In this document: piece after piece, positions 16,994 through 53,332 of the stretch
Layout of the letters: each line of letters opens with the position of its first letter
Numbering within the stretch: the stretch's first letter is position 1
Made by a program: the position numbers and the translations under genes
From: a virus
Virus record (IMG/VR): IMGVR_UViG_3300036668_000173
Location: 1-64,000 of that record
Direction: 5' to 3' (one strand)
DNA length: 64,000 bases
The notes under the pieces: model-generated
Database searches by the model: none
What the model was told of the DNA's origin: nothing
Seen by the model: the letters and a program-made list of their open reading frames with translations, nothing else

Positions 16994-17262
16994 CAAGAAA
17001 ATATAGACCTATATCTCAAGAAGTACCATCGCCAACTACTTTGGCTAATGCTACTACCGTTTCGGATGCCAATGTTGTTCGTGTCATAAACACTGCCCCT
17101 ACTACTACATACCTAATGACCTTACTAGATGCGTCTAATTCGGTGGTTGGTACGATGACTTTGGGTGGTGGTGAAATCGCCTTGTTAGATAAGCCAAAAA
17201 CATATAAGGTGTTTTGCGCGAACGCCTCAGTAAAGTTAACCTCAGTGAGTTACCCAGCATGA
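16990..17262 (+). CDS. Hypothetical head-module protein
   Basis: ATGA coupling on both sides. Confidence 0.65.
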   Translation: MTRKYRPISQEVPSPTTLANATTVSDANVVRVINTAPTTTYLMTLLDASNSVVGTMTLGGGEIALLDKPKTYKVFCANASVKLTSVSYPA

Positions 17263-17912
17263 AATTAATCACAGAAAACATCGAAGAAGTAAGGTATGTC
17301 ATTCAAGAAGACAAGGCTACTGGAAAAAAGAAAAGCATAATCGAAGGCGTGTTTATGCAAGCCGAACAGAAAAACCGTAATAATAGGATCTACTCTAAGC
17401 CTATTCTAGAAAACGCAGTTAAACGATACAGTACCGAACAGGTTGCCAAGAATCGCGCGGTAGGCGAACTCAATCACCCAGACACCCCAACAATCAACCT
17501 TGATAAAGTCTCTCACCGAATCACAGAATTGAGATGGGAAGGAAACGATGTAATGGGTAAGGCAATCATCCTCGATACTCCTATGGGAAGAATCGCCAGA
17601 GGACTCATGGAAGGCGGAGTTCAATTAGGTGTTTCTAGTAGAGGCATGGGCTCTATCGAGCAACGTGGTGGAATCTCTTATGTTAAGCCTGATTTTATGT
17701 TGGCAACAGTTGACATTGTTCAAGATCCGTCTTGTGTCGATGCAATGGTTGACGGAATATTAGAAGGCGTTGAATGGGGTCGTGATGAAAGTGGAAACTA
17801 CTATCGCATTCAAGAATATAAAGAGACCGTAAAAAAATCTTATCGTAATAGTATATCAGAAGAAGAAAGAACCAATATCCAGATTAAGGCATTTAAAAAA
17901 TTATTTAGTTAA
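17259..17912 (+). CDS. gp21: Prohead protease gp21
   Basis: MKLITE, KNRNNRIY, GELNHP, GVSSRGMGS, DIVQDPS. Confidence 0.95.
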   Translation: MKLITENIEEVRYVIQEDKATGKKKSIIEGVFMQAEQKNRNNRIYSKPILENAVKRYSTEQVAKNRAVGELNHPDTPTINLDKVSHRITELRWEGNDVMGKAIILDTPMGRIARGLMEGGVQLGVSSRGMGSIEQRGGISYVKPDFMLATVDIVQDPSCVDAMVDGILEGVEWGRDESGNYYRIQEYKETVKKSYRNSISEEERTNIQIKAFKKLFS

Positions 17913-25197: not shown

Positions 25198-25815
25198 ATG
25201 TCACACGAAGAAAAAACAAAAACAGAGTTAACTAAGGCAAAGGATAGCCCAAATTACGTCAACAATAAAGAGTTTGTTAGCGCAGTGGTGGAATATGTCG
25301 CCAAAGTCAATCAGGCAAAGAAAGACGAAAAGCCTATACCAATCGTTCCAGATTACCTAGCAATATGCTTTTTAAAGATCTCTGAGGGGCTATCCCACAA
25401 GCATAACTTCATCAGGTATACCTATAGAGAAGAAATGGTAATGGATGGTGTAGAGACGTGTCTGAAGGGTATTACGATGTACGACATCAATGCTAAGACT
25501 CGAACAGGTTCGCCTAATGCCTTTGGCTATTTTACCCAGATTTGCTTCTGGTCGTTCCTTCGAAGAATCGCAAAAGAGAAGAAGCAACAAGACATCAAAA
25601 TGAAGTTCATGTCCGAGTGTTTTATCGAAGACTTAGTTCAATTTGACGATCTGGACGATTTTGACTACAATGCCAACAAACCATTTTTAGATCACCTCTT
25701 AGAGCGCATTAATCAAGTAAAAAATCATGACACTCAAATTAAAGAGTTTGGTAAAAAAATAAAAAAGAGTAAAAAGGAGATACCTCTTTCGATCCTTCAA
25801 TTGTTTATGGAATAA
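25198..25815 (+). CDS. gp55: Late sigma factor gp55
   Basis: YVNNKEF, NFIRYTYREEMVMDG, NAFGYFTQI, RRIAKEKKQ. Confidence 0.95.
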   Translation: MSHEEKTKTELTKAKDSPNYVNNKEFVSAVVEYVAKVNQAKKDEKPIPIVPDYLAICFLKISEGLSHKHNFIRYTYREEMVMDGVETCLKGITMYDINAKTRTGSPNAFGYFTQICFWSFLRRIAKEKKQQDIKMKFMSECFIEDLVQFDDLDDFDYNANKPFLDHLLERINQVKNHDTQIKEFGKKIKKSKKEIPLSILQLFME

Positions 25816-39146: not shown

Positions 39147-39726
39147 ATTTATCTGGTACCCTGACCTACAGATGGGATATCACCCAAGAGATCCGATTGA
39201 CTATGATGGCGATTATTGGGACAAGTACCTTAAGTACGACAAATCAGATATGGGAGTCGAGCTTACACGAGCACGTTTAGATTTAGTTAAGCGACACAGT
39301 AAAAGTGCCGATATAATTGACATTGGTATCGGTGGTGGTTTATTTGTTAGTGAAATGAATTGCTATGGGTTTGACGTAAACGAACGCGCTAATCAATGGT
39401 TGCATTCCAATAATAGATTTAAAAATCCGTACCAAGACCGAGCACATTCTATCACCTGTTGGGATTCGATTGAGCATGTTCCCGACCCTACCACACTATT
39501 GAAAAATGTTGACAAGTGGTTCTTTGCCTCTATACCAATTTTTCAATCACCAGAGACAGTTAAAGATTCTAAACACTACCGACCTGGGGAACACATATGG
39601 TACTTCACCCATGAAGGTTTCATTGCATGGGCAGGTCGTCATGGCTTTGAACTAGTCGAATGGAATGATCAAGAAACTTTACTGGGTCGCGAAGATATTC
39701 GCTCATACGCATTCAAGAGAGTATAA
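39112..39726 (+). CDS. Class I SAM-dependent methyltransferase
   Basis: IIDIGIGGG, GFDVN, WDSIEHVPDP, EHIWYFT. Confidence 0.8.
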   Translation: MSKNLPTGYEDEFIWYPDLQMGYHPRDPIDYDGDYWDKYLKYDKSDMGVELTRARLDLVKRHSKSADIIDIGIGGGLFVSEMNCYGFDVNERANQWLHSNNRFKNPYQDRAHSITCWDSIEHVPDPTTLLKNVDKWFFASIPIFQSPETVKDSKHYRPGEHIWYFTHEGFIAWAGRHGFELVEWNDQETLLGREDIRSYAFKRV

Positions 39727-39734
39727 ATAAAAGT

Positions 39735-39947
39735 ATGTTATCATTCAAAGAATACGAAGAAATATTACAAGAGGCTTCATATGCTGGAAATATCGGCATC
39801 ATGGAGTTGGTAAAATTTTATAAACAGGCAGACCCTAAGACTATTGCTAAGGTTAAAGATCTCATCGCATCAAAGAAGAACAAAGAGGCGTGGGACATAA
39901 TCCAAAAAGTGACTGGGGTAACTCTTCACAAGTCTGCTTTTGCATAG
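39735..39947 (+). CDS. Late small protein with capsid-targeting-like N-terminus (MLSFKEYEEILQE)
   Basis: Late promoter TATAAATA at 39722-39729 immediately upstream. Confidence 0.7.
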   Translation: MLSFKEYEEILQEASYAGNIGIMELVKFYKQADPKTIAKVKDLIASKKNKEAWDIIQKVTGVTLHKSAFA

Positions 39948-46501: not shown

Positions 46502-47813
46502 AACCTTCACCCGAAGAGTTATTCCGTTTTTGAATCGTGAATACTTTGATTCGTCATACGGAGAAGTATTTAAAGAGGTTGTTAAGTTTGTAGACAAGTA
46601 CAATAAACTACCTACACCCGAATCATTAACAGTAGAGCTTTCGGAGTCTGCTTCAAATGAAGTAATGAGTTTGGTTAAATTAATATCTCAGCCACAAGAG
46701 GTTGCCTGTGATACCGAATGGTTGATTGACTCCACAGAAAAGTGGTGTCAAGACAAGGCGATTTATTTAGCCATCATGGAATCTATCTCTATCATTGATG
46801 GAACACACAAGACTTTAGCCAAGACCGCTTTACCAGATCTTCTGAGCAATGCTCTTGGCGTTTCCTTTGATTCAAATATCGGACATGACTACATTAAGGA
46901 CTCGAGCGCTCGGTATGACTACTATCACCGAACCGAGTCGAGAGTTCCATTTGATCTAGATTACTTCAATAAAATTACAAAGGGTGGTTTGCCTAACAAG
47001 ACATTGAATATTATATTAGCGTCGACAGGCGTAGGTAAGAGTTTGTTCATGACCCATACATCTGCTTCGGCTCTTATGGATGGTCGAAACGTTTTGTACC
47101 TTACCATGGAAATGTCCGAAGAGAAAATTGCCGAACGCATTGACGCAAACCTTATGAACGTGCCACTAGATTCGTTAGAGGGCATGACACGTGACACCTT
47201 CAAAACCAAGATTGATAAAATTGCTCAGAGAAATATCGGTAAGCTAATCATCAAAGAGTACCCTACAGGATCTGCTCATGTAGGACACTTTCGGGCATTG
47301 CTCAATGAACTCAAGATGAAGAAAAAGTTTGTGCCCCATATAATCATGATCGACTATTTAAATATTTGCTCGTCTTCAAGGATGAAGGGCATGGGTGGTG
47401 CCATTAATTCATATGCATACATCAAATCAATCTCAGAAGAAATACGAGGGCTTGCAGTAGAGTTTGATGTCCCTATCCTTACCGCGACCCAATCCAATCG
47501 AGACGGTTTGTCTAATACTGATGTCGATCTGAGCAATACCAGCGATAGTTTTGGAACCCCTATGTCAGCAGATTTAATGTTTGCTCTCATTTCAACCGAA
47601 GAGCTAGAAGGTATGGGTCAAATCATGGTCAAGCAATTAAAGAATCGATACAATGACCTATCAAAGCATAAGCGTTTCGTGATCGGTGTGGATCGTGCCA
47701 AGATGAAACTGTATGACGTAGAGACTTCTGCTCAAACTCTTGTACAAGATACACCGAGTTATGATAACTCCCCGAAGTCCTCAAACGATAAATTTTCAGG
47801 ATTCAAAGTATGA
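46419..47813 (+). CDS. gp41: Replicative helicase gp41
   Basis: ASTGVGKS, TMEMSEE, IKEYPT, IDYLNI, TATQSNR, KQLKNRY. Confidence 0.95.
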   Translation: MEHETTNQQAQHATQLQELILKNLITNETFTRRVIPFLNREYFDSSYGEVFKEVVKFVDKYNKLPTPESLTVELSESASNEVMSLVKLISQPQEVACDTEWLIDSTEKWCQDKAIYLAIMESISIIDGTHKTLAKTALPDLLSNALGVSFDSNIGHDYIKDSSARYDYYHRTESRVPFDLDYFNKITKGGLPNKTLNIILASTGVGKSLFMTHTSASALMDGRNVLYLTMEMSEEKIAERIDANLMNVPLDSLEGMTRDTFKTKIDKIAQRNIGKLIIKEYPTGSAHVGHFRALLNELKMKKKFVPHIIMIDYLNICSSSRMKGMGGAINSYAYIKSISEEIRGLAVEFDVPILTATQSNRDGLSNTDVDLSNTSDSFGTPMSADLMFALISTEELEGMGQIMVKQLKNRYNDLSKHKRFVIGVDRAKMKLYDVETSAQTLVQDTPSYDNSPKSSNDKFSGFKV

Positions 47814-48196
47814 ACAAGACCTATACTCGAACTATAAGTAAGGATGGTAGCATCTCTTTGCCTAAAAAGGTAGTCAAGCTATTAAGAGTAAAACCTAATG
47901 ATCAAATTAAGTTTGTGGATAACATGGATGGTAGTCTTATGCTTATGAGTGATTTTTTGATGGAAGATGGATATGTAGAAATATCTAAATTGGAAAGTGG
48001 GGACATGAAAAGATATGCAAGACTCTATATTTGCAAATCAAAAGATCACTATATTGTAGATATGTACGAAAATAGTAGGCTAACATATTCTAGAAAGATT
48101 TCTGGTACGCACACTCAAAACTATGTAGAAGACTGTGCTGAAAATTGGATTTTAAAATGTGGAGAATTTAAAAATGAAAGTAATGATACAAAATAA
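47810..48196 (+). CDS. Hypothetical protein with AbrB/MazE-like N-terminal domain
   Basis: ISKDGSISLPKKVVKLL.V..ND.IKF swapped-hairpin pattern. Confidence 0.55.
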   Translation: MNKTYTRTISKDGSISLPKKVVKLLRVKPNDQIKFVDNMDGSLMLMSDFLMEDGYVEISKLESGDMKRYARLYICKSKDHYIVDMYENSRLTYSRKISGTHTQNYVEDCAENWILKCGEFKNESNDTK

Positions 48197-48353: not shown

Positions 48354-49021
48354 AAGTAAAACTTGTATCGTACTCACAACCAACAGAAGATTTTATCGGC
48401 GATGGGCTAACCAACTTACAAGACTTAGTTGCATATTGTGCAAGGGTGTCTAATCCCTCTAATCAACTGAACAAGGACACCAATGAAAAATTGATCAAGT
48501 ATCTTATTAAGAATAAGCATTGGAGCCCACTCGAGATGGTTTCTGTTTGCATGGAAGTCGAAACAACTCGAGATATTGCCAGACAGTTTTTGCGGCATAG
48601 ATCCTTCTCTTTTCAGGAATTTAGCCAAAGATATGCAGATCCTACCAAAGACTTGGATTTTGTGATTCGAGAAGTTCGATTACAGGATACTACGAATAGA
48701 CAAAACTCTATTGGTATAGATCTTCAAACTGACGACGGTAGAAGGCTTTCATGGATGTTCGAGGCTCAACAACTAAAGGTTATTGAAGCCGCGAAAACTG
48801 CCTACGCTTGGGCGATCGAAAACGGCATTGCCAAGGAACAGGCTCGAGCAGTTTTACCAGAAGGCTTGACCGTTTCGCGCATGTACGTGAATGGTACCCT
48901 TAGGTCTTGGATCCACTACTGTGAGCTTAGGTCTGCTAATGGTACACAGTTAGAACACATCGAGATCGCCAAGGCATGTAGTGAGGTCATCGCCAAGGTG
49001 TTTCCCCTGATCAACGAATAA
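48350..49021 (+). CDS. thyX: Flavin-dependent thymidylate synthase
   Basis: HWSPLE, RHRSFSFQEFSQRY signature, EQARAVLP. Confidence 0.95.
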   Translation: MKVKLVSYSQPTEDFIGDGLTNLQDLVAYCARVSNPSNQLNKDTNEKLIKYLIKNKHWSPLEMVSVCMEVETTRDIARQFLRHRSFSFQEFSQRYADPTKDLDFVIREVRLQDTTNRQNSIGIDLQTDDGRRLSWMFEAQQLKVIEAAKTAYAWAIENGIAKEQARAVLPEGLTVSRMYVNGTLRSWIHYCELRSANGTQLEHIEIAKACSEVIAKVFPLINE

Positions 49022-49040
49022 GGACAAACGCCCGTTGTTC

Positions 49041-49084
49041 ATCTACACACAAGGTATAAAAAATAGTATACCTTGTGTGTAGAT
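49041..49084. repeat. Perfect 18-bp inverted repeat with 8-nt loop
   Basis: atctacacacaaggtata (49041-49058) / tataccttgtgtgtagat (49067-49084). Confidence 0.9.
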
Positions 49085-49116
49085 TCGTGTACAATTAACG
49101 TATAGATAACCAAACA

Positions 49117-49124
49117 TATAAATA
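49117..49124 (+). promoter_or_regulatory. Late promoter TATAAATA
   Basis: Exact consensus 5 nt upstream of the 49130 ATG. Confidence 0.75.
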
Positions 49125-49129
49125 TACAC

Positions 49130-50143
49130 ATGAAAACCTTTAAATCCTTCCTAGCCGAGCAAGTCAAAATTTCTACCAGAGAACAGGTAGAATCAATCAT
49201 TGCTTCGTATAAAAACGCCAGCGAGATATTGAATCCTGACTATCAGAATTTAGCTCAGAGAGCAAATAACATATTGTCAAGATATTCGGAATTGGCTAAA
49301 AAACCTGTATGGGATTATTTCAGAGATCTACGTCAATATGACGAGGTCACTGATTTAGACTATGGATGGGGTATTGGTTTATCTTTAAATGGTTTGTCGA
49401 CCTTCGAGAAAAAATTAGATAAAATTAAAAAGACGAAATACCCAGCCGAAGTAAGTGGCGTTGTAAAAAAAATTGTTTCTGTTGCCGATAATATCTTGAG
49501 CGATTGGAAACAAATCTCTATTGACATGAAAGCCTTAAAGCTCAAAGTCGTAAAGGTTACTGTAAAGCGTCAACAAGAAAAAGAAGTCAAGACAGAAATA
49601 CTTAAAGGTAAGTTTCGTGATTCTTCTTCCTTGATAAAAGTACTCGAGAGTCATTTAGAAGAGTATAAGGAAAGGGCTAGAACAGAGTCTACGAAATTTG
49701 TTAAATCTAAGCTCGATGCGCTGGCCGCAAAAAATTGGGATTTAAGTGTCGTGGCACCTCGACCAAATAGTAATAATTCGAGAGAAGAATATATGAGAGC
49801 AATTGCTCGTAGATCTATCTATGAGTTATTGACTGATTCAAAAGATAAAACGCCACGATCCACATCAGATGTTCGTGTAGTTCGCGAATTGGGTGTTGCT
49901 AAATATATCAAAGATAGCGTAGACGGAGCCGAGCAAAGCTATCGGGAGTTTATGCAAAAGATGATCGAGAAAATTGGCAAGCCAGTTGTAACTGCGAAGT
50001 TTTTGGGTAACATCTGGACAGGTTCAGTTCTTGATGTCGTAACAAACGATGGCGAAAGTCAGCGCTGGAACACTAAGATGATCATTAACTTTTCAAAGTA
50101 TCAGAAGATGTTTAATCAGTTTCCTACAACCAGAAAAAAATAA
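49130..50143 (+). CDS. Putative capsid-internal (ejected) protein, N-terminus MKTFKSFLAE
   Basis: Very close to the T4 IPIII capsid-targeting sequence MKTYQEFIAE; late promoter. Confidence 0.65.
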   Translation: MKTFKSFLAEQVKISTREQVESIIASYKNASEILNPDYQNLAQRANNILSRYSELAKKPVWDYFRDLRQYDEVTDLDYGWGIGLSLNGLSTFEKKLDKIKKTKYPAEVSGVVKKIVSVADNILSDWKQISIDMKALKLKVVKVTVKRQQEKEVKTEILKGKFRDSSSLIKVLESHLEEYKERARTESTKFVKSKLDALAAKNWDLSVVAPRPNSNNSREEYMRAIARRSIYELLTDSKDKTPRSTSDVRVVRELGVAKYIKDSVDGAEQSYREFMQKMIEKIGKPVVTAKFLGNIWTGSVLDVVTNDGESQRWNTKMIINFSKYQKMFNQFPTTRKK

Positions 50144-50161
50144 TAAAATAAGGGTTTTAAC

Positions 50162-50893
50162 ATGTTAGATATAATTTCGTTTTCTTCTTTTGTGGCATTG
50201 CAGGAGGGTGTAGTAAACCCTGCAATGCTTGGCGATAAAGATATACAAAAATTAGATAAAATGTTAAAGAACCCTAGGGCAAGTGAAATAGAAAAAAGAG
50301 ACTCCTTGGCTAGTATACATGCCAAATATTTGCCCCTGATTACAAGTGTGATGAATAAGTTCCAATCTCAGGTCAAACGAGAAATGGGAAACCTACCAAA
50401 GGTAAAGTTTTTAGCAGGAACCAAGCCCTTCGAGTCTCTTATATCTAAAGTGATTTCCCGAGGAAAGAAAATATCAGAGATAAACGACCTAGTTCGTGGG
50501 GCAGTTCTATTTGACACCAAGGAACAAGCAGACGCCTTTGTTAAGAATTTCACTAGGAGAAACTCCTCTAATGTGGTAGAATATGAAGTGAAGGATAAGG
50601 GTTCAGACACTACGTATGGTTATTTTGGTTCTCACCATATAGGGCTCAATATTGATGGTATAATTGTTGAGCTACAAGTGATGACCCGAAAGCTTTGGAA
50701 TTACAAAGGCTCGGCACACGTTATTTACAACAATACCCGAGAAAAAAAGGGAGGCCCTAATAAGTTTGACATTTCTCAGTCTAAGAAAATCTTTGCTTTA
50801 GGGAATCGTCCCGGCTATGTAAAAGATGATTGGGATTTAAGTGAGCTAGAAGTTATTCTGGAAACTAACGATGAAGCACCGTTTCGATATTGA
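50162..50893 (+). CDS. RelA/SpoT-family synthetase domain protein (small alarmone synthetase-like) with CTS-like N-terminus
   Basis: KPFESLISK, INDLVRG, YGYFGSHH, VELQVMT, HVIY correspond to the SYNTH motifs. Confidence 0.75.
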   Translation: MLDIISFSSFVALQEGVVNPAMLGDKDIQKLDKMLKNPRASEIEKRDSLASIHAKYLPLITSVMNKFQSQVKREMGNLPKVKFLAGTKPFESLISKVISRGKKISEINDLVRGAVLFDTKEQADAFVKNFTRRNSSNVVEYEVKDKGSDTTYGYFGSHHIGLNIDGIIVELQVMTRKLWNYKGSAHVIYNNTREKKGGPNKFDISQSKKIFALGNRPGYVKDDWDLSELEVILETNDEAPFRY

Positions 50894-51254
50894 TAAATTA
50901 AGTTATGTTGCCGAATTTGTCGGTGATCATGAGTTCATATTTTATGTAGATGTGGTTGAGTCAAAAATAAACCCCTATGTTATGTCTAAGGAGTGTTTAA
51001 GTTTTGGAGATGTGTCTCCCTTAAAGATTTTTAGTAAGATTGACTCTAAGGATGTCTTTAAGATTAAAAGTCACTTGGCTAAATTTATAGATAGCGTCTT
51101 AAGTCGATATGATCCTTATTACTTCTTCTATCGAGCAAACGAGGATCATAAGCGCTCGGTGTACTACAAATTCGGTCTTTACATTGCAAAAAAATACGGC
51201 TATAATATGTATGTAGATGACGTATTGGGTAAATTTAGTTTTTATAAGAGTTAA
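50871..51254 (+). CDS. Hypothetical protein
   Basis: Overlaps the 3' end of the SAS gene; aromatic-rich. Confidence 0.55.
   Translation: MKHRFDIDKLSYVAEFVGDHEFIFYVDVVESKINPYVMSKECLSFGDVSPLKIFSKIDSKDVFKIKSHLAKFIDSVLSRYDPYYFFYRANEDHKRSVYYKFGLYIAKKYGYNMYVDDVLGKFSFYKS
51178..51206 (+). promoter_or_regulatory. Sigma70/early-type promoter TTTACA-17-TATAAT
   Basis: tttaca 51178-51183, tataat 51201-51206, 17-bp spacer. Confidence 0.6.
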
Positions 51255-51256
51255 AT

Positions 51257-51700
51257 ATGAATGTTCATGTGACTGGTGGGAACAAACTTCAAAAAGAAAT
51301 TGCTCGTCAATTATGCGAATTCTTCAAGGCTAAGTACCTCAGTAAGTTCAAAACAATACGGATAGACATTTCTATTGAAAAAAATCTAGCCGAAGATTGT
51401 GGCTGTGATGGAGCTTGTACGCCCATTGGTGGAAATCGTGGTCGAGAGTTTGAAATAGAAATTGATCGTGATTTGTCTTTGATTCAGTTTATGAAAACAT
51501 TAACGCATGAGCTTACTCATGTTCGTCAATATGTGACAGGCGATATGGTAGAGGTCAAAGGTAAAGAGCCGAAGACGTTATGGAAAGGAAAGGACTACTC
51601 TAAGGTTTCGTATTCAAAGCAACCATGGGAGCGTCAGGCGTTTCGACTTCAAGAAAGTTTGTACCTAGAATTTTTAGCGAGTACTCCGTCAATCAAATAA
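51257..51700 (+). CDS. HEXXH zinc metallopeptidase-like protein
   Basis: TLTHELTHVRQY, PWERQA. Confidence 0.75.
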   Translation: MNVHVTGGNKLQKEIARQLCEFFKAKYLSKFKTIRIDISIEKNLAEDCGCDGACTPIGGNRGREFEIEIDRDLSLIQFMKTLTHELTHVRQYVTGDMVEVKGKEPKTLWKGKDYSKVSYSKQPWERQAFRLQESLYLEFLASTPSIK

Positions 51701-51763
51701 AATTTCACTAAGAGACTAAGGTCAAAAGTGATAACTTTGTTTTTATAAGGAATAATTTTTGTT

Positions 51764-52243
51764 ATGAATATACCCCACCTTGAGAACGTCGCCAAAGAAA
51801 TAGCGAAGTCTCGTCATTCTGGAATGGTTGACTTGTTAGGCGTAGACTATTTCTCTGGTCATCTAACATCAGTTGCCAATGGCGTTTTAGGTGACTCAAT
51901 TCTTGTGGCAATCGCATATCTTCACGATGTAATAGAAGACACTGATATTTCACCCGCCAACCTCTCTAATGTATTAATAGCCTCATCCGATAATATGTAT
52001 GACGCATCTATCGTCAAGGATGTTGTCGATGCTGTCGTGGCTATGTCTAAGGTTTCAGGTGAGACCTATAACGAATACTTAGCGCGTGTCGCCTCTAATC
52101 CTTTATCAGTAAAAGTTAAGATAGCAGATATTATGAATAACATGGACGAATCACGTGGAATTATTTCTGATCACAAATTCGTTAGCAGAAGAGTTAAGTA
52201 CTCGGACGCATTAGTCTATCTACGTGGAATCGACTCGCAATAG
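51764..52243 (+). CDS. HD-domain hydrolase (SpoT/Mesh1 small alarmone hydrolase-like)
   Basis: H.G..D..G..Y...H...VA, AYLHDVIEDT, VKIADIMNN. Confidence 0.8.
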   Translation: MNIPHLENVAKEIAKSRHSGMVDLLGVDYFSGHLTSVANGVLGDSILVAIAYLHDVIEDTDISPANLSNVLIASSDNMYDASIVKDVVDAVVAMSKVSGETYNEYLARVASNPLSVKVKIADIMNNMDESRGIISDHKFVSRRVKYSDALVYLRGIDSQ

Positions 52244-52252
52244 GATTTAAAT

Positions 52253-52822
52253 ATGTTATTAAAACTGAGAATTTTATATAATTTATCTTTCATGTTGGTC
52301 TTGTTTGTGTTTTTATCGGTGGCAACTTACTCTATGATAAGACCAACTCCTCCTCAGGTTTTCAATGTTTCTAGTATTCAAACCTTTGATGCCCTTCCCT
52401 TGGTCACTGAAGTTATATACTATAAAAGGGATCCAATAAAAATCACAAAAAAAGACCTTGATTGCCTCGAAAAGAACATATACTACGAGGCAGGTGTAGA
52501 GAATAGAAATGGTAAGATCGCAGTTGCTCAGGTGACCTATAATCGCCTAAAGTCTGGGAAATGGGGGGACACCTTTTGTAAGGTGATATATGCGCCACAT
52601 CAATTTTCTTGGACTAAACAGCGTAAAAAGGAAAAGCCCAAAGGTGCGTTATGGGAAGAAAGTAAATCAGTCGCGAAAGAGTTCGTGAACGGAATCCGTA
52701 TACAATCCCTTAAAAACTCCATACACTATCATGCCACATGGATAGATGAGCCTCACTGGGCAGATGAAGAAAGAATAGTTAAGACCATTGGTCAACACGT
52801 CTTTTACAGTCAAATACGTTAG
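52253..52822 (+). CDS. Cell wall hydrolase (SleB/Hydrolase_2) with N-terminal TM anchor
   Basis: CL..NIYYEAG.E, AVAQVT.NR, QFSW, IGQHVFY. Confidence 0.88.
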   Translation: MLLKLRILYNLSFMLVLFVFLSVATYSMIRPTPPQVFNVSSIQTFDALPLVTEVIYYKRDPIKITKKDLDCLEKNIYYEAGVENRNGKIAVAQVTYNRLKSGKWGDTFCKVIYAPHQFSWTKQRKKEKPKGALWEESKSVAKEFVNGIRIQSLKNSIHYHATWIDEPHWADEERIVKTIGQHVFYSQIR

Positions 52823-52860
52823 TACTAGTCGAAATAAATACTACTCAAAAGTTTATTTTA

Positions 52861-52868
52861 TATAAATA
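52861..52868 (+). promoter_or_regulatory. Late promoter TATAAATA
   Basis: Exact consensus heading the 52949-55508 operon. Confidence 0.75.
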
Positions 52869-52948
52869 TAAGTAATTGAATATAAACTTGTAACAGGCCG
52901 AGGCATATAAATTTTCGCCTCACTCCTAATGGGAAAGTATAAACTAGT

Positions 52949-53332
52949 ATGAAAACATTTAAAGAATTTTCGTTGGACGAACAACTATCAACCCAATCAA
53001 GGTTGAAGAAAAAGCAGTCGTTACGAAGAAATAAAGCTAAAATAAAACTAGGAAAACTAAGAGCATCAAGGAAGCTTGCATCTCAGGACGTGATCGCAAA
53101 ACGCGCCAGACGTGCCGCGAGAGCCTTTATGTTCAAGAGACTAGTAAAAGGTAAAACAAAAAACGAGTTGCCTTACTCATCACGTCAGACATATGAGAAA
53201 ATCATAGATCGTCGCAAGGGCGCCGTAGATAAATTAGCAAAACGCCTTATCCCTAAAATTAGAAAAGCCGAGATGCAACGTAAGTTAAATCGTCGTCAGG
53301 CTCAAAGTGGGAGCGTCGCCAAAAATGATTAA
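52949..53332 (+). CDS. Highly basic putative prohead core/internal protein (gp68-like), N-terminus MKTFKEFSLDE
   Basis: CTS-like start followed by an R/K-rich body. Confidence 0.65.
   Translation: MKTFKEFSLDEQLSTQSRLKKKQSLRRNKAKIKLGKLRASRKLASQDVIAKRARRAARAFMFKRLVKGKTKNELPYSSRQTYEKIIDRRKGAVDKLAKRLIPKIRKAEMQRKLNRRQAQSGSVAKND

Follow-up and report, generated by a model that had tools for sequence, protein, structure and literature searches.

The window analysed here, the first 64 kb of an 87,312-bp viral contig of IMG/VR (CheckV completeness 48%), carries on its plus strand a gene for a small synthetase of the RelA/SpoT fold (50162-50893, 243 amino acids). Two genes that we discuss together with it lie downstream on the same strand: one for a partner protein of 127 amino acids (50871-51254), whose start overlaps the 3' end of the synthetase gene by 23 nt, and one for an HD-domain pyrophosphohydrolase of 159 amino acids (51764-52243), the third gene downstream of the synthetase. 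The synthetase can be divided into a leader (amino acids 1-15; 50162-50206), a core of approximately amino acids 40-215, and an acidic tail (amino acids 216-243; 50807-50890). The contig is without a close sequenced relative in this region: 49000-53000 gave no nucleotide match among 50,697 phage records. Three DNA sequencing runs and no RNA run were listed for the stretch; the one DNA run that contains all of it bears the label of a salt-lake metagenome and may be where the contig came from.

An initial annotation of the sequence had described the product of 50162-50893 as a stand-alone RelA/SpoT synthetase domain, and profile and structure comparisons bear this out. The Pfam RelA_SpoT family (PF04607) matched amino acids 87-191 at 26.0 bits (E 1.2e-5; gathering cut-off 27), four relatives scored above that cut-off (P0057, 29.5; P0129, 30.3; P0145, 34.2; and P0103, 29.4 bits), and the protein matched phrog_37685 at 4e-45. 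An AlphaFold2 (AF2) model built on 120 relatives had a mean pLDDT of 92.1 and a pTM of 0.83, with order starting at about residue 20. Foldseek searches of the PDB with this model returned 54 chains at E<=1e-3, those listed all being RelA/SpoT-type synthetases, and gave a probability of 1.00 for CapRel, RelQ, RelP, Rel and Tas1. The top match, CapRel (7ztb; E 4.5e-7, TMq 0.58-0.62), also had the longest coverage (amino acids 20-218). Structural alignment with VIA-align produced Z values of 15.3 to RelQ (5ded; rmsd 3.4, 171 residues aligned), 14.5 to both RelP and CapRel, and 13.4 to both Tas1 and an exported Streptomyces synthetase. Because of the model confidence, the Foldseek matches and the Z values, we regard the predicted RelA/SpoT synthetase fold as certain. 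Its subclass among the RelA/SpoT homologue (RSH) enzymes is less certain. A sequence profile of the synthetase family did not recover CapRel at E<=1, and the PADLOC defence models gave no family at E<=0.01 for the five proteins of 49130-52243.

Conservation of the active site was examined in an alignment of 24 close relatives and in a second alignment of 120 sequences. In the former, K88, K96, R100, D109, R112, G153, Y154, H159, E170, Q172, H186 and Y189 are invariant. In the latter, K88, K96, K144, G156, H159, E170 and Y189 are invariant, and D109, Y154, R100 and the remaining residues fixed among the close relatives are kept in at least 90% of the sequences. The catalytic set of Syn2 Asp (D109), Syn4 Glu (E170) and G-loop Tyr (Y154) is present. 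The canonical forms of the Syn1 Arg, of Syn2 (DxxGxR) and of Syn4 (EIQIRT) are not found: Thr87 occupies the position of the Syn1 Arg, whose substitution had been noticed earlier, and this position is variable in the family; the Syn2 sequence is D-L-V-R-G-A, and that of Syn4 is E-L-Q-V-M-T, in which the Met hardly varies.

Asp and Glu make up 27% of the C-terminal tail, compared with 14% of the core. The L-x-E and I-x-E sequences that had been pointed out there as candidate cleavage sites are present and form a family trait, [LI]xE occurring in 60 of 86 short tails compared with 40.1+-3.7 in shuffles (maximum 49 in 300). This enrichment would allow a zymogen role for the tail, and a conserved acidic helix fits it equally well.

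A full HMMER search for relatives of the synthetase yielded 250 representative clusters at E<=1e-3, 195 of them at <=1e-10. The gene was found in 11 phage records, with Desulfovibrio/Nitratidesulfovibrio phage 7757, four Sinorhizobium phages, Variovorax phage V45v66 and Paraglaciecola phage GD1 as hosts of the gene, and GenBank names for the relatives are RelA/SpoT or GTP pyrophosphokinase. The synthetase is gp365 in Sinorhizobium phage phiM12 and gp92 in GD1. A scan of prokaryotes, in which one genome from each of 185,579 species was searched with a single peptide pattern, detected two synthetase loci, both on contigs of metagenome-assembled genomes (MAGs) and both with an adjacent HD gene. 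The subfamily appears almost confined to T4-like phages. In Sinorhizobium phages phiM12 and phiN3 (loci L002 and L004), the synthetase and partner genes are flanked by genes for a CCA-adding tRNA nucleotidyltransferase and a PTH2 peptidyl-tRNA hydrolase. No prior report of a capsid-targeted alarmone synthetase was found in the literature searched, which is not proof that none exists, and the available portions of PMC4621102 (on phiM12/phiM9) and PMC9239159 (on Antarctic phages) do not mention the synthetase.

The leader and the head machinery

Relatives of the synthetase share an N-terminal pattern, M-K-T/S-F-x-E/Q-F/Y-L/I-x-E, that lies ahead of the catalytic domain and terminates in an [LI]-x-E site; its position-specific consensus is F-K-E-F-L-x-E. 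It resembles the leaders of the T4 internal proteins (IPs) in the T4 record, namely MKTYQEFIAEA in IPII and IPIII and MKTFKEF in IPI, and the homologues from phiM12 and GD1 have N-termini of this T4 type. We counted leaders in the 167 relatives with sequences in hand, using a loose pattern and a strict one (M-x1-3-F/Y-x-x-F/Y-hydrophobic-x-E/D), and shuffled residues 2-30 in 200 trials as a control. The loose pattern was present in 79 of the 167 relatives, compared with 2.7 in shuffles (maximum 7), and the strict pattern in 47, compared with 0.34 (maximum 2). The capsid-targeting sequence ascribed to the synthetase at the outset is in this way upheld at the level of the family, the copy in the window (MLDIISFSSFVALQE-G) being degenerate. 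This copy terminates in L-Q-E15, at a position where at least 90% of the 120 sequences have a Glu. No T4-type leader is present at the N-terminus of either the 127-amino acid partner or the HD protein.

Among the 126 plus-strand open reading frames (ORFs) of the contig, seven match the loose pattern; five of these, including 50162, are candidate cargo proteins, and two (4662 and 84349) are not. Unrelated ORFs with a T4-type leader start at 49130, 52949, 53325, 39735, 58820 and 16775, and at 68318 of the contig, outside the window. The leaders on these ORFs include MKTFKSFLAE, MKTFKEFSLDE, MIKSFSDYLQE (on a cytidyltransferase-like protein, phrog_395), MLSFKEYEEILQE, MKIKSYKEFQKEE and MLSFSDYLMTEE. 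Their recurrence suggests a set of capsid-loaded cargo proteins. In phage GD1, leader-bearing genes named 'RNA phosphodiesterase' and 'nuclease' adjoin the synthetase gene.

The window encodes a T4-type head module with portal (phrog_213), gp67-like core protein, maturation protease, scaffold and major head protein (PHROG matches phrog_207, phrog_237, phrog_1064, phrog_138 and phrog_213). The gp21-type head maturation protease (17214-17912, plus strand; phrog_207, 1.2e-76) adjoins the genes for the other four, so that a gp21-type protease, a gp22 scaffold and core proteins are all encoded in one genome with the synthetase. The window also has a gene for a late sigma factor of the gp55 type (25198-25815; phrog_234, 1.4e-49). 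Between the major capsid protein and its counterparts in Methylophilales phage Melnitz, pelagiphage HTVC008M and Sinorhizobium phage phiN3, identity is 58-60%, and an L-S-E directly ahead of a conserved stretch in this protein would fit a protease that cuts at [LI]-x-E. A T4 leader alone has been reported to be enough for the encapsidation of foreign proteins (PMC3012670). Because the synthetase family carries a leader of this type, loading into the head and co-injection with the DNA, as the initial annotation envisaged, seems to us the most economical reading.

The partner protein and the HD hydrolase

A profile built from seven clear homologues of the partner protein (50871-51254) found it adjoining the synthetase in 16 of 20 other loci (E 1e-56 to 4e-11), or 13 of 17 after three near-duplicate pairs were merged. 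It was not found in L003, L018, L021 and L020, the last of which is a contig that ends at the synthetase. Its position varies, with the gene lying downstream on the same strand, in convergent orientation (L012/13/15/16), or upstream (L017). The AF2 model of the partner had a pLDDT of 90 and gave no Foldseek match in the PDB at E<=1e-3. A likeness to GNAT acetyltransferases was considered and set aside, the best VIA-align Z of 7.0, to the C-terminal halves of such enzymes, being at the background of the tool; we claim neither a GNAT relationship nor a new fold. A weak link to DUF6934 was obtained from the ESM Atlas and from three of 15 family members (best E 0.004). Word-index searches for homologues returned three and eight proteins, too few for mapping the distribution of the family. 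By its linkage to the synthetase and by analogy with published modules, the partner is probably a binding inhibitor of the synthetase and thus a candidate immunity protein. It would be a likelier primary neutraliser than the HD protein, a role underweighted when it was listed simply as an alternative rescuer.

The HD protein matches phrog_990 at 2e-32. Its best solved relative is 7smg, a '(p)ppApp hydrolase' (E 3.4e-12), Rel hydrolase domains following at about 1e-6, and NCBIfam gave just a weak spoT_relA match (24 bits; cut-off 499). It is 40% identical to Aph1 of Streptococcus phage IPP32, and the HD catalytic residues H33, H54-D55, E58-D59, D122 and N126 are present and kept by all 13 aligned sequences. 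Six residues (D24, R96, D116, R119, K133 and Y134) have been described as separating Aph1-type (p)ppApp hydrolases from (p)ppGpp hydrolases (PMC10083569). The protein of the window keeps all six, as D23, R108, D128, R131, K145 and Y146 (HMMER alignment to 7smg; MAFFT), and so do GD1 gp94 and four HD domains that are fused to synthetases. According to the same report, hydrolysis of ppGpp by Aph1 was not detectable (PMC10083569). The signature, which the initial annotation missed, points to an adenosine 3'-pyrophosphate as the probable product of the synthetase. The earlier description of a Mesh1-like or small alarmone hydrolase (SAH)-like protein three genes downstream was right as to an HD hydrolase and its position, and in type the protein is Aph1-like rather than Mesh1-like.

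Co-occurrence of the two enzymes, which had been put forward as a check on their pairing, is pronounced. By tblastn, an HD gene lies within 10 kb of the synthetase in five of the 20 loci and in both MAG loci, and it is directly adjacent in L003, L016, L018/L026, L019 and L027. When whole records were searched, nine of the 17 IMG/VR records that carry the synthetase had an HD gene, as did six of the nine that are at least 90% complete, compared with a baseline of 452 of 50,697 phage records (approximately 1%). It is also present in GD1 and phiM12; in phiM12 and phiN3 (records W01 and G005) some 50 kb separate it from the synthetase, and it sits at the extreme genome end on the opposite strand. 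At least seven relatives (P0044, P0050, P0057, P0066, P0129, P0145 and P0148) are a single polypeptide in which an HD domain at the N-terminus precedes a synthetase at the C-terminus, a count based on Pfam searches of 10 of the 34 relatives longer than 300 amino acids and on alignment. The domain order of these fusions is that of the long Rel enzymes; P0129 starts with a leader, and four or five of the others show a leader-like motif in the linker. A functional link between the two is supported by the enrichment of the HD gene in genomes with the synthetase and by the fusions seen in some relatives.

Known systems, a proposed mechanism and its alternatives

The closest analogue that we found, overlooked when the locus was earlier set against toxin-antitoxin (TA) and defence systems, is the MuF-Apk2/IapK/Aph1 module of temperate phages of Bacteroides caccae, Streptococcus pneumoniae, Mannheimia and Pasteurella, in which IapK is Tis1-like. 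In the loci described, a tis1-like gene for a binding immunity protein always comes after the toxin gene, and aph is variably present (PMC10083569, PMC12226406); whether Apk2-type toxins are carried in virions was left as a question in PMC10083569. The gene order in Streptococcus phage IPP32 is portal, MuF protein, a 69-amino acid ORF and HD protein, the apk2-iapK-aph1 arrangement of the published descriptions (PMC12226406, PMC10083569). Our synthetase family profile aligns to amino acids 379-497 of the IPP32 MuF protein (hhalign probability 89.7, E 1.9e-6), and the alignment puts the Syn2 Arg where Apk2 has it (R-G-A here, R-Y-T there). Common to these modules and the locus in the window would be a phage synthetase of the RSH fold on a head-delivery device, a small non-enzymatic neutraliser (a candidate one here) found in nearly all loci, and an Aph1-type hydrolase found in only part of them. 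The locus differs in having no MuF domain but instead a putative, cleavable T4-type leader of about 15 amino acids; no MuF match to the synthetase was found with Pfam or PHROG, and only amino acids 52-195 match the toxin end of phrog_7625. It differs also in belonging to large T4-like myoviruses rather than temperate siphoviruses, in Syn3 and Syn4 motifs that are not Apk2-like, in an unrelated partner of 127 amino acids without detectable likeness to Tis1 (69 amino acids in IPP32), and in one extra unrelated gene between the partner and HD genes. Of the reported Apk signature, syn2 RYT, syn3 GxN and syn4 YH (PMC12226406), the synthetase shares the syn2 Arg only. Assignment of a substrate from these motifs was given up, the picture being mixed (an Apk2-like Arg in Syn2, the RSH form in Syn3, neither in Syn4). 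Because swapping syn motifs left specificity unchanged and the motifs alone do not set it (PMC12226406), we do not rest the product call on them.

With the T4 internal proteins IPI, IPII and IPIII and the ADP-ribosyltransferase Alt, the synthetase shares the type of N-terminal leader, the accompanying head-assembly genes and the predicted removal of the leader at [LI]-x-E by the prohead protease; like them, it may have its task in the newly infected cell, ahead of phage gene expression. None of the T4 internal proteins is an RSH enzyme, the IPs being small, DNA-associated anti-restriction proteins. We know of no description of immunity proteins for the T4 IPs in the producing cell. In the FaRel operon (ATfaRel SAH - FaRel - AT2faRel), a synthetase that makes (pp)pApp is neutralised by both an SAH hydrolase and a small binding protein (PMC7229694), and the window likewise has a small synthetase with a hydrolase and a candidate binding-type neutraliser. 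The FaRel operon, in contrast, is a chromosomal or prophage TA module without a delivery signal, its SAH is of the PbcSpo subfamily, and we found no sequence link between it and the 127-amino acid partner. Thirteen phage small alarmone synthetases (SASs) are listed in the datasets of PMC7229694. CapRel, the best Foldseek match, is also a single polypeptide with a C-terminal extension past the synthetase core. It differs in being a host defence protein, a fused toxic SAS (toxSAS) and antitoxin that acts as a tRNA pyrophosphokinase and is triggered by a phage capsid protein, and its extension is a folded pseudo-zinc-finger domain (pseudo-ZFD) of about 100 amino acids, compared with an acidic tail of 28 amino acids here. 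The locus appears to join the logic of Apk2/IapK/Aph1 to the delivery route of the T4 internal proteins, with a partner family that is apparently new.

We therefore favor, at odds slightly better than even (roughly 0.55), the interpretation of this locus as a counterpart in T4-like phages of the MuF-Apk2/IapK/Aph1 modules, with a synthetase delivered by its leader and two neutralisers, the MuF delivery domain having been replaced by the capsid-targeting leader. The synthetase would be made late in infection, carried by its leader into the scaffolding core of the prohead, trimmed after Glu15 by the gp21-type protease, and stored in the head until its ejection, along with the DNA, into a new host. 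In this host it would move pyrophosphate from ATP onto an adenosine nucleotide at the 3'-OH, yielding (p)ppApp and draining ATP; A76 of tRNA or GDP/GTP would be less likely acceptors. The producing cell would be protected by the two proteins that are not packaged, the partner, probably as a binding inhibitor, and the Aph1-type HD hydrolase, which would degrade the product. In a more elaborate form, which we entertain only tentatively, virulent T4-like phages of aquatic and soil bacteria would load the adenosine 3'-pyrophosphokinase as a zymogen, the protease would strip both the leader and an autoinhibitory acidic tail rich in [LI]xE, a burst of (p)ppApp and a loss of ATP would follow at entry, ahead of all phage gene expression, and the partner, as a member of a new immunity family distantly related to DUF6934, and Aph1 would guard the producer.

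Several observations weigh against the delivery of an adenosine-directed synthetase. The RelA_SpoT match of the window's own protein is slightly under the Pfam cut-off (26.0 and 27 bits), its leader is the degenerate copy mentioned above, and in only three of 20 other loci does the late-promoter-like motif TATAAATA lie within 200 nt upstream of the synthetase. Among solved proteins, the sequence profile ranks (p)ppGpp synthetases nearest (Rel, 3.9e-6), with Tas1 at merely 0.045. Syn3 (S157-H-H159) has the RSH-like 'SxH' form linked to guanosine and not the Apk2 'GxN', and the V-M of Syn4 fits neither form. The partner has no detectable likeness to Tis1 or another known inhibitor, Tis1 being absent from the Foldseek and VIA-align lists. 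Three of the nine complete genomes with the synthetase have no detectable HD gene, and the HD-synthetase fusions, one of them leader-bearing, misfit a simple model in which a toxin is packaged and its antidote stays behind. Finally, an enzyme that drains ATP at entry would harm the phage too, unless its action were brief or weak.

Two alternatives concern the substrate. Once injected, the enzyme could stall the host's translation by acting as a CapRel/FaRel2/PhRel2-type pyrophosphokinase on the 3'-CCA of tRNA, and the HD protein would then take the 3' pyrophosphate off again. An Aph1-type hydrolase would suit this activity too, its acceptor likewise being an adenosine 3'-OH; CapRel heads the Foldseek list, the genes for the CCA-adding enzyme and PTH2 flank the synthetase in phiM12 and phiN3, and the family core is basic (17.8% Lys and Arg, 13.7% Asp and Glu). 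We consider this unlikely, however, as the Z values of RelQ, RelP, CapRel and Tas1 all fall within 2 units, the sequence profile misses CapRel, no PADLOC model was matched, and in the window no tRNA genes or tRNA enzymes adjoin the synthetase. Alternatively, the enzyme could make (p)ppGpp and put the host into a shut-off that resembles the stringent response, which would agree with the RSH form of Syn3 (PMC12226406), with the Rel and RelQ-type enzymes that are nearest by profile, and with the GenBank names of the relatives. That product is the least probable of the alternatives weighed here: the linked hydrolases, whether separate or fused, bear the signature of Aph1, for which no hydrolysis of ppGpp was detectable (PMC10083569), the Syn2 Arg is in the Apk2 position, the canonical Syn4 Arg is absent, and syn motifs such as Syn3 do not by themselves fix specificity (PMC12226406).

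Two further alternatives concern delivery and the hydrolase. If the synthetase were not packaged, the three genes would form an intracellular TA, superinfection-exclusion or metabolic module and the N-terminal motif would have another role. The degenerate leader of the window would fit such a module, and toxSAS enzymes with both binding and SAH antitoxins, such as FaRel, are known as plain TA systems (PMC7229694). The motif, on the other hand, stands at the extreme N-terminus, is family-wide, closes in a conserved Glu and agrees with the leaders of the T4 IPs; unrelated proteins of the contig and of phage GD1 bear it as well, both the partner and the HD protein lack it, and the family is almost absent from cellular genomes (the two MAG loci in the single-pattern scan of 185,579 species). 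An unpackaged module accordingly strikes us as quite improbable, although a shade less so than a (p)ppGpp product. It is also doubtful, to about the same degree as the tRNA activity, that the HD hydrolase serves mainly against toxSAS or alarmone immunity of the host, its proximity to the synthetase being secondary. Stand-alone phage SAHs neutralise all tested toxSASs (PMC7229694), the 452 phage records with HD relatives mostly lack the synthetase, which is in 11 records only, and the HD gene of phiM12 and phiN3 is distant from the synthetase. Set against this are the enrichment of the HD gene in complete records with the synthetase, its fusion to the synthetase in at least seven relatives, and its direct adjacency in the loci named above.

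In these phages an enzyme of the Apk2 kind would be attached to the T4 capsid-targeting leader, the one phage delivery signal with a well-understood mechanism. Should its delivery prove correct, nucleotide-alarmone chemistry would join the known injected phage effectors (anti-restriction IPs and the ADP-ribosyltransferase Alt), a new family of immunity proteins would be defined, and the locus would provide a natural case of an enzyme cargo that needs to be silent in the producer cell. If true, the zymogen form would give the first demonstrated case of an alarmone synthetase that a lytic phage delivers in its virion. Since the family is present in cultured phages (phiM12/phiN3, Paraglaciecola phage GD1 and Desulfovibrio phage 7757), the question of carriage in the virion is directly testable.

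The gene block and its promoter-like motifs

Upstream of the synthetase, a protein of 128 amino acids (47810-48196) has an N-terminal MazE/AbrB-type (SpoVT) domain (26.2 bits; Pfam cut-off 24.7) and sits between a DnaB-like helicase and thyX, with no evident toxin partner. Between thyX and the next gene block lies a perfect 18-bp hairpin (49041-49084, plus strand), a candidate terminator, processing site or regulatory element. Its predicted fold (-33.3 kcal/mol, z -5.65) was not equalled in stability in any of 200 shuffles; it has no U-tract, and a terminator scan did not flag it. The hairpin possibly marks an operon boundary.

The motif TATAAATA, which resembles T4-type late promoters, occurs at 49117-49124 on the plus strand, 5 nt ahead of the ATG at 49130. 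There are 14 copies in the window compared with 5.6+-2.3 expected, a number reached in one of 100 shuffles; 11 of the 14 are on the plus strand, and nine of these 11 are directly upstream of genes. The first gene of the putative late block (49130-50143, plus strand) encodes a protein of 337 amino acids with the canonical leader MKTFKSF-LAE (phrog_4687, function unknown), for which tblastn found no match in the 20 other synthetase loci. The genes from 49130 to 52822 are closely packed, with overlaps or gaps of at most 63 nt, and a single late transcript across them is plausible, as had been suggested for 49117; the motif is present and enriched and the block is tight, but the late timing is itself deduced from one motif 1 kb upstream of the synthetase. 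A late promoter directly at the synthetase was dropped as a family trait, the exact motif being within 200 nt upstream in just the three of 20 other loci. At 39722-39737 and again at 49117-49132, TATAAATA ends exactly 5 nt ahead of the ATG of an ORF that carries a leader, and a Shine-Dalgarno sequence is lacking. In T4, late transcription starts about 6 nt past the motif. If the same holds here, the mRNAs at both sites would be leaderless.

Early expression of the HD gene, which had been proposed on the basis of a promoter, is not supported, because the promoter match is at chance level and misplaced. The sigma-70-like sequence TTTACA-17-TATAAT (51178-51206, plus strand; 11 of 12 positions) does exist, but inside the partner gene and ahead of the gene at 51257, 558 nt from the start of the HD gene. 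Promoter-like sites in the 10-kb region number 27, compared with 27.3 in shuffles, and the 87-kb contig has two matches of at least 11/12 per strand, compared with 1.45 expected per strand. The sole 12/12 TTGACA-17-TATAAT on the contig, at 86540-86568 outside the window, lies in an intergenic gap and is a better early-promoter candidate than 51178.

The gene between those of the partner and the HD protein (51257-51700, plus strand) encodes a protein of 147 amino acids with an HExxH motif (HELTH), which matches phrog_10499 at 8e-29 and, weakly, the DUF6782 metallopeptidases (E 0.023); tblastn found no homologue in the other 20 loci, which places it outside the conserved module. The final gene of the block (52253-52822, plus strand) encodes a SleB-type cell-wall hydrolase (Pfam Hydrolase_2, 9e-24; endolysin PHROGs) whose N-terminus is strongly hydrophobic and which may be a signal-anchor endolysin; the next copy of TATAAATA follows at 52861.

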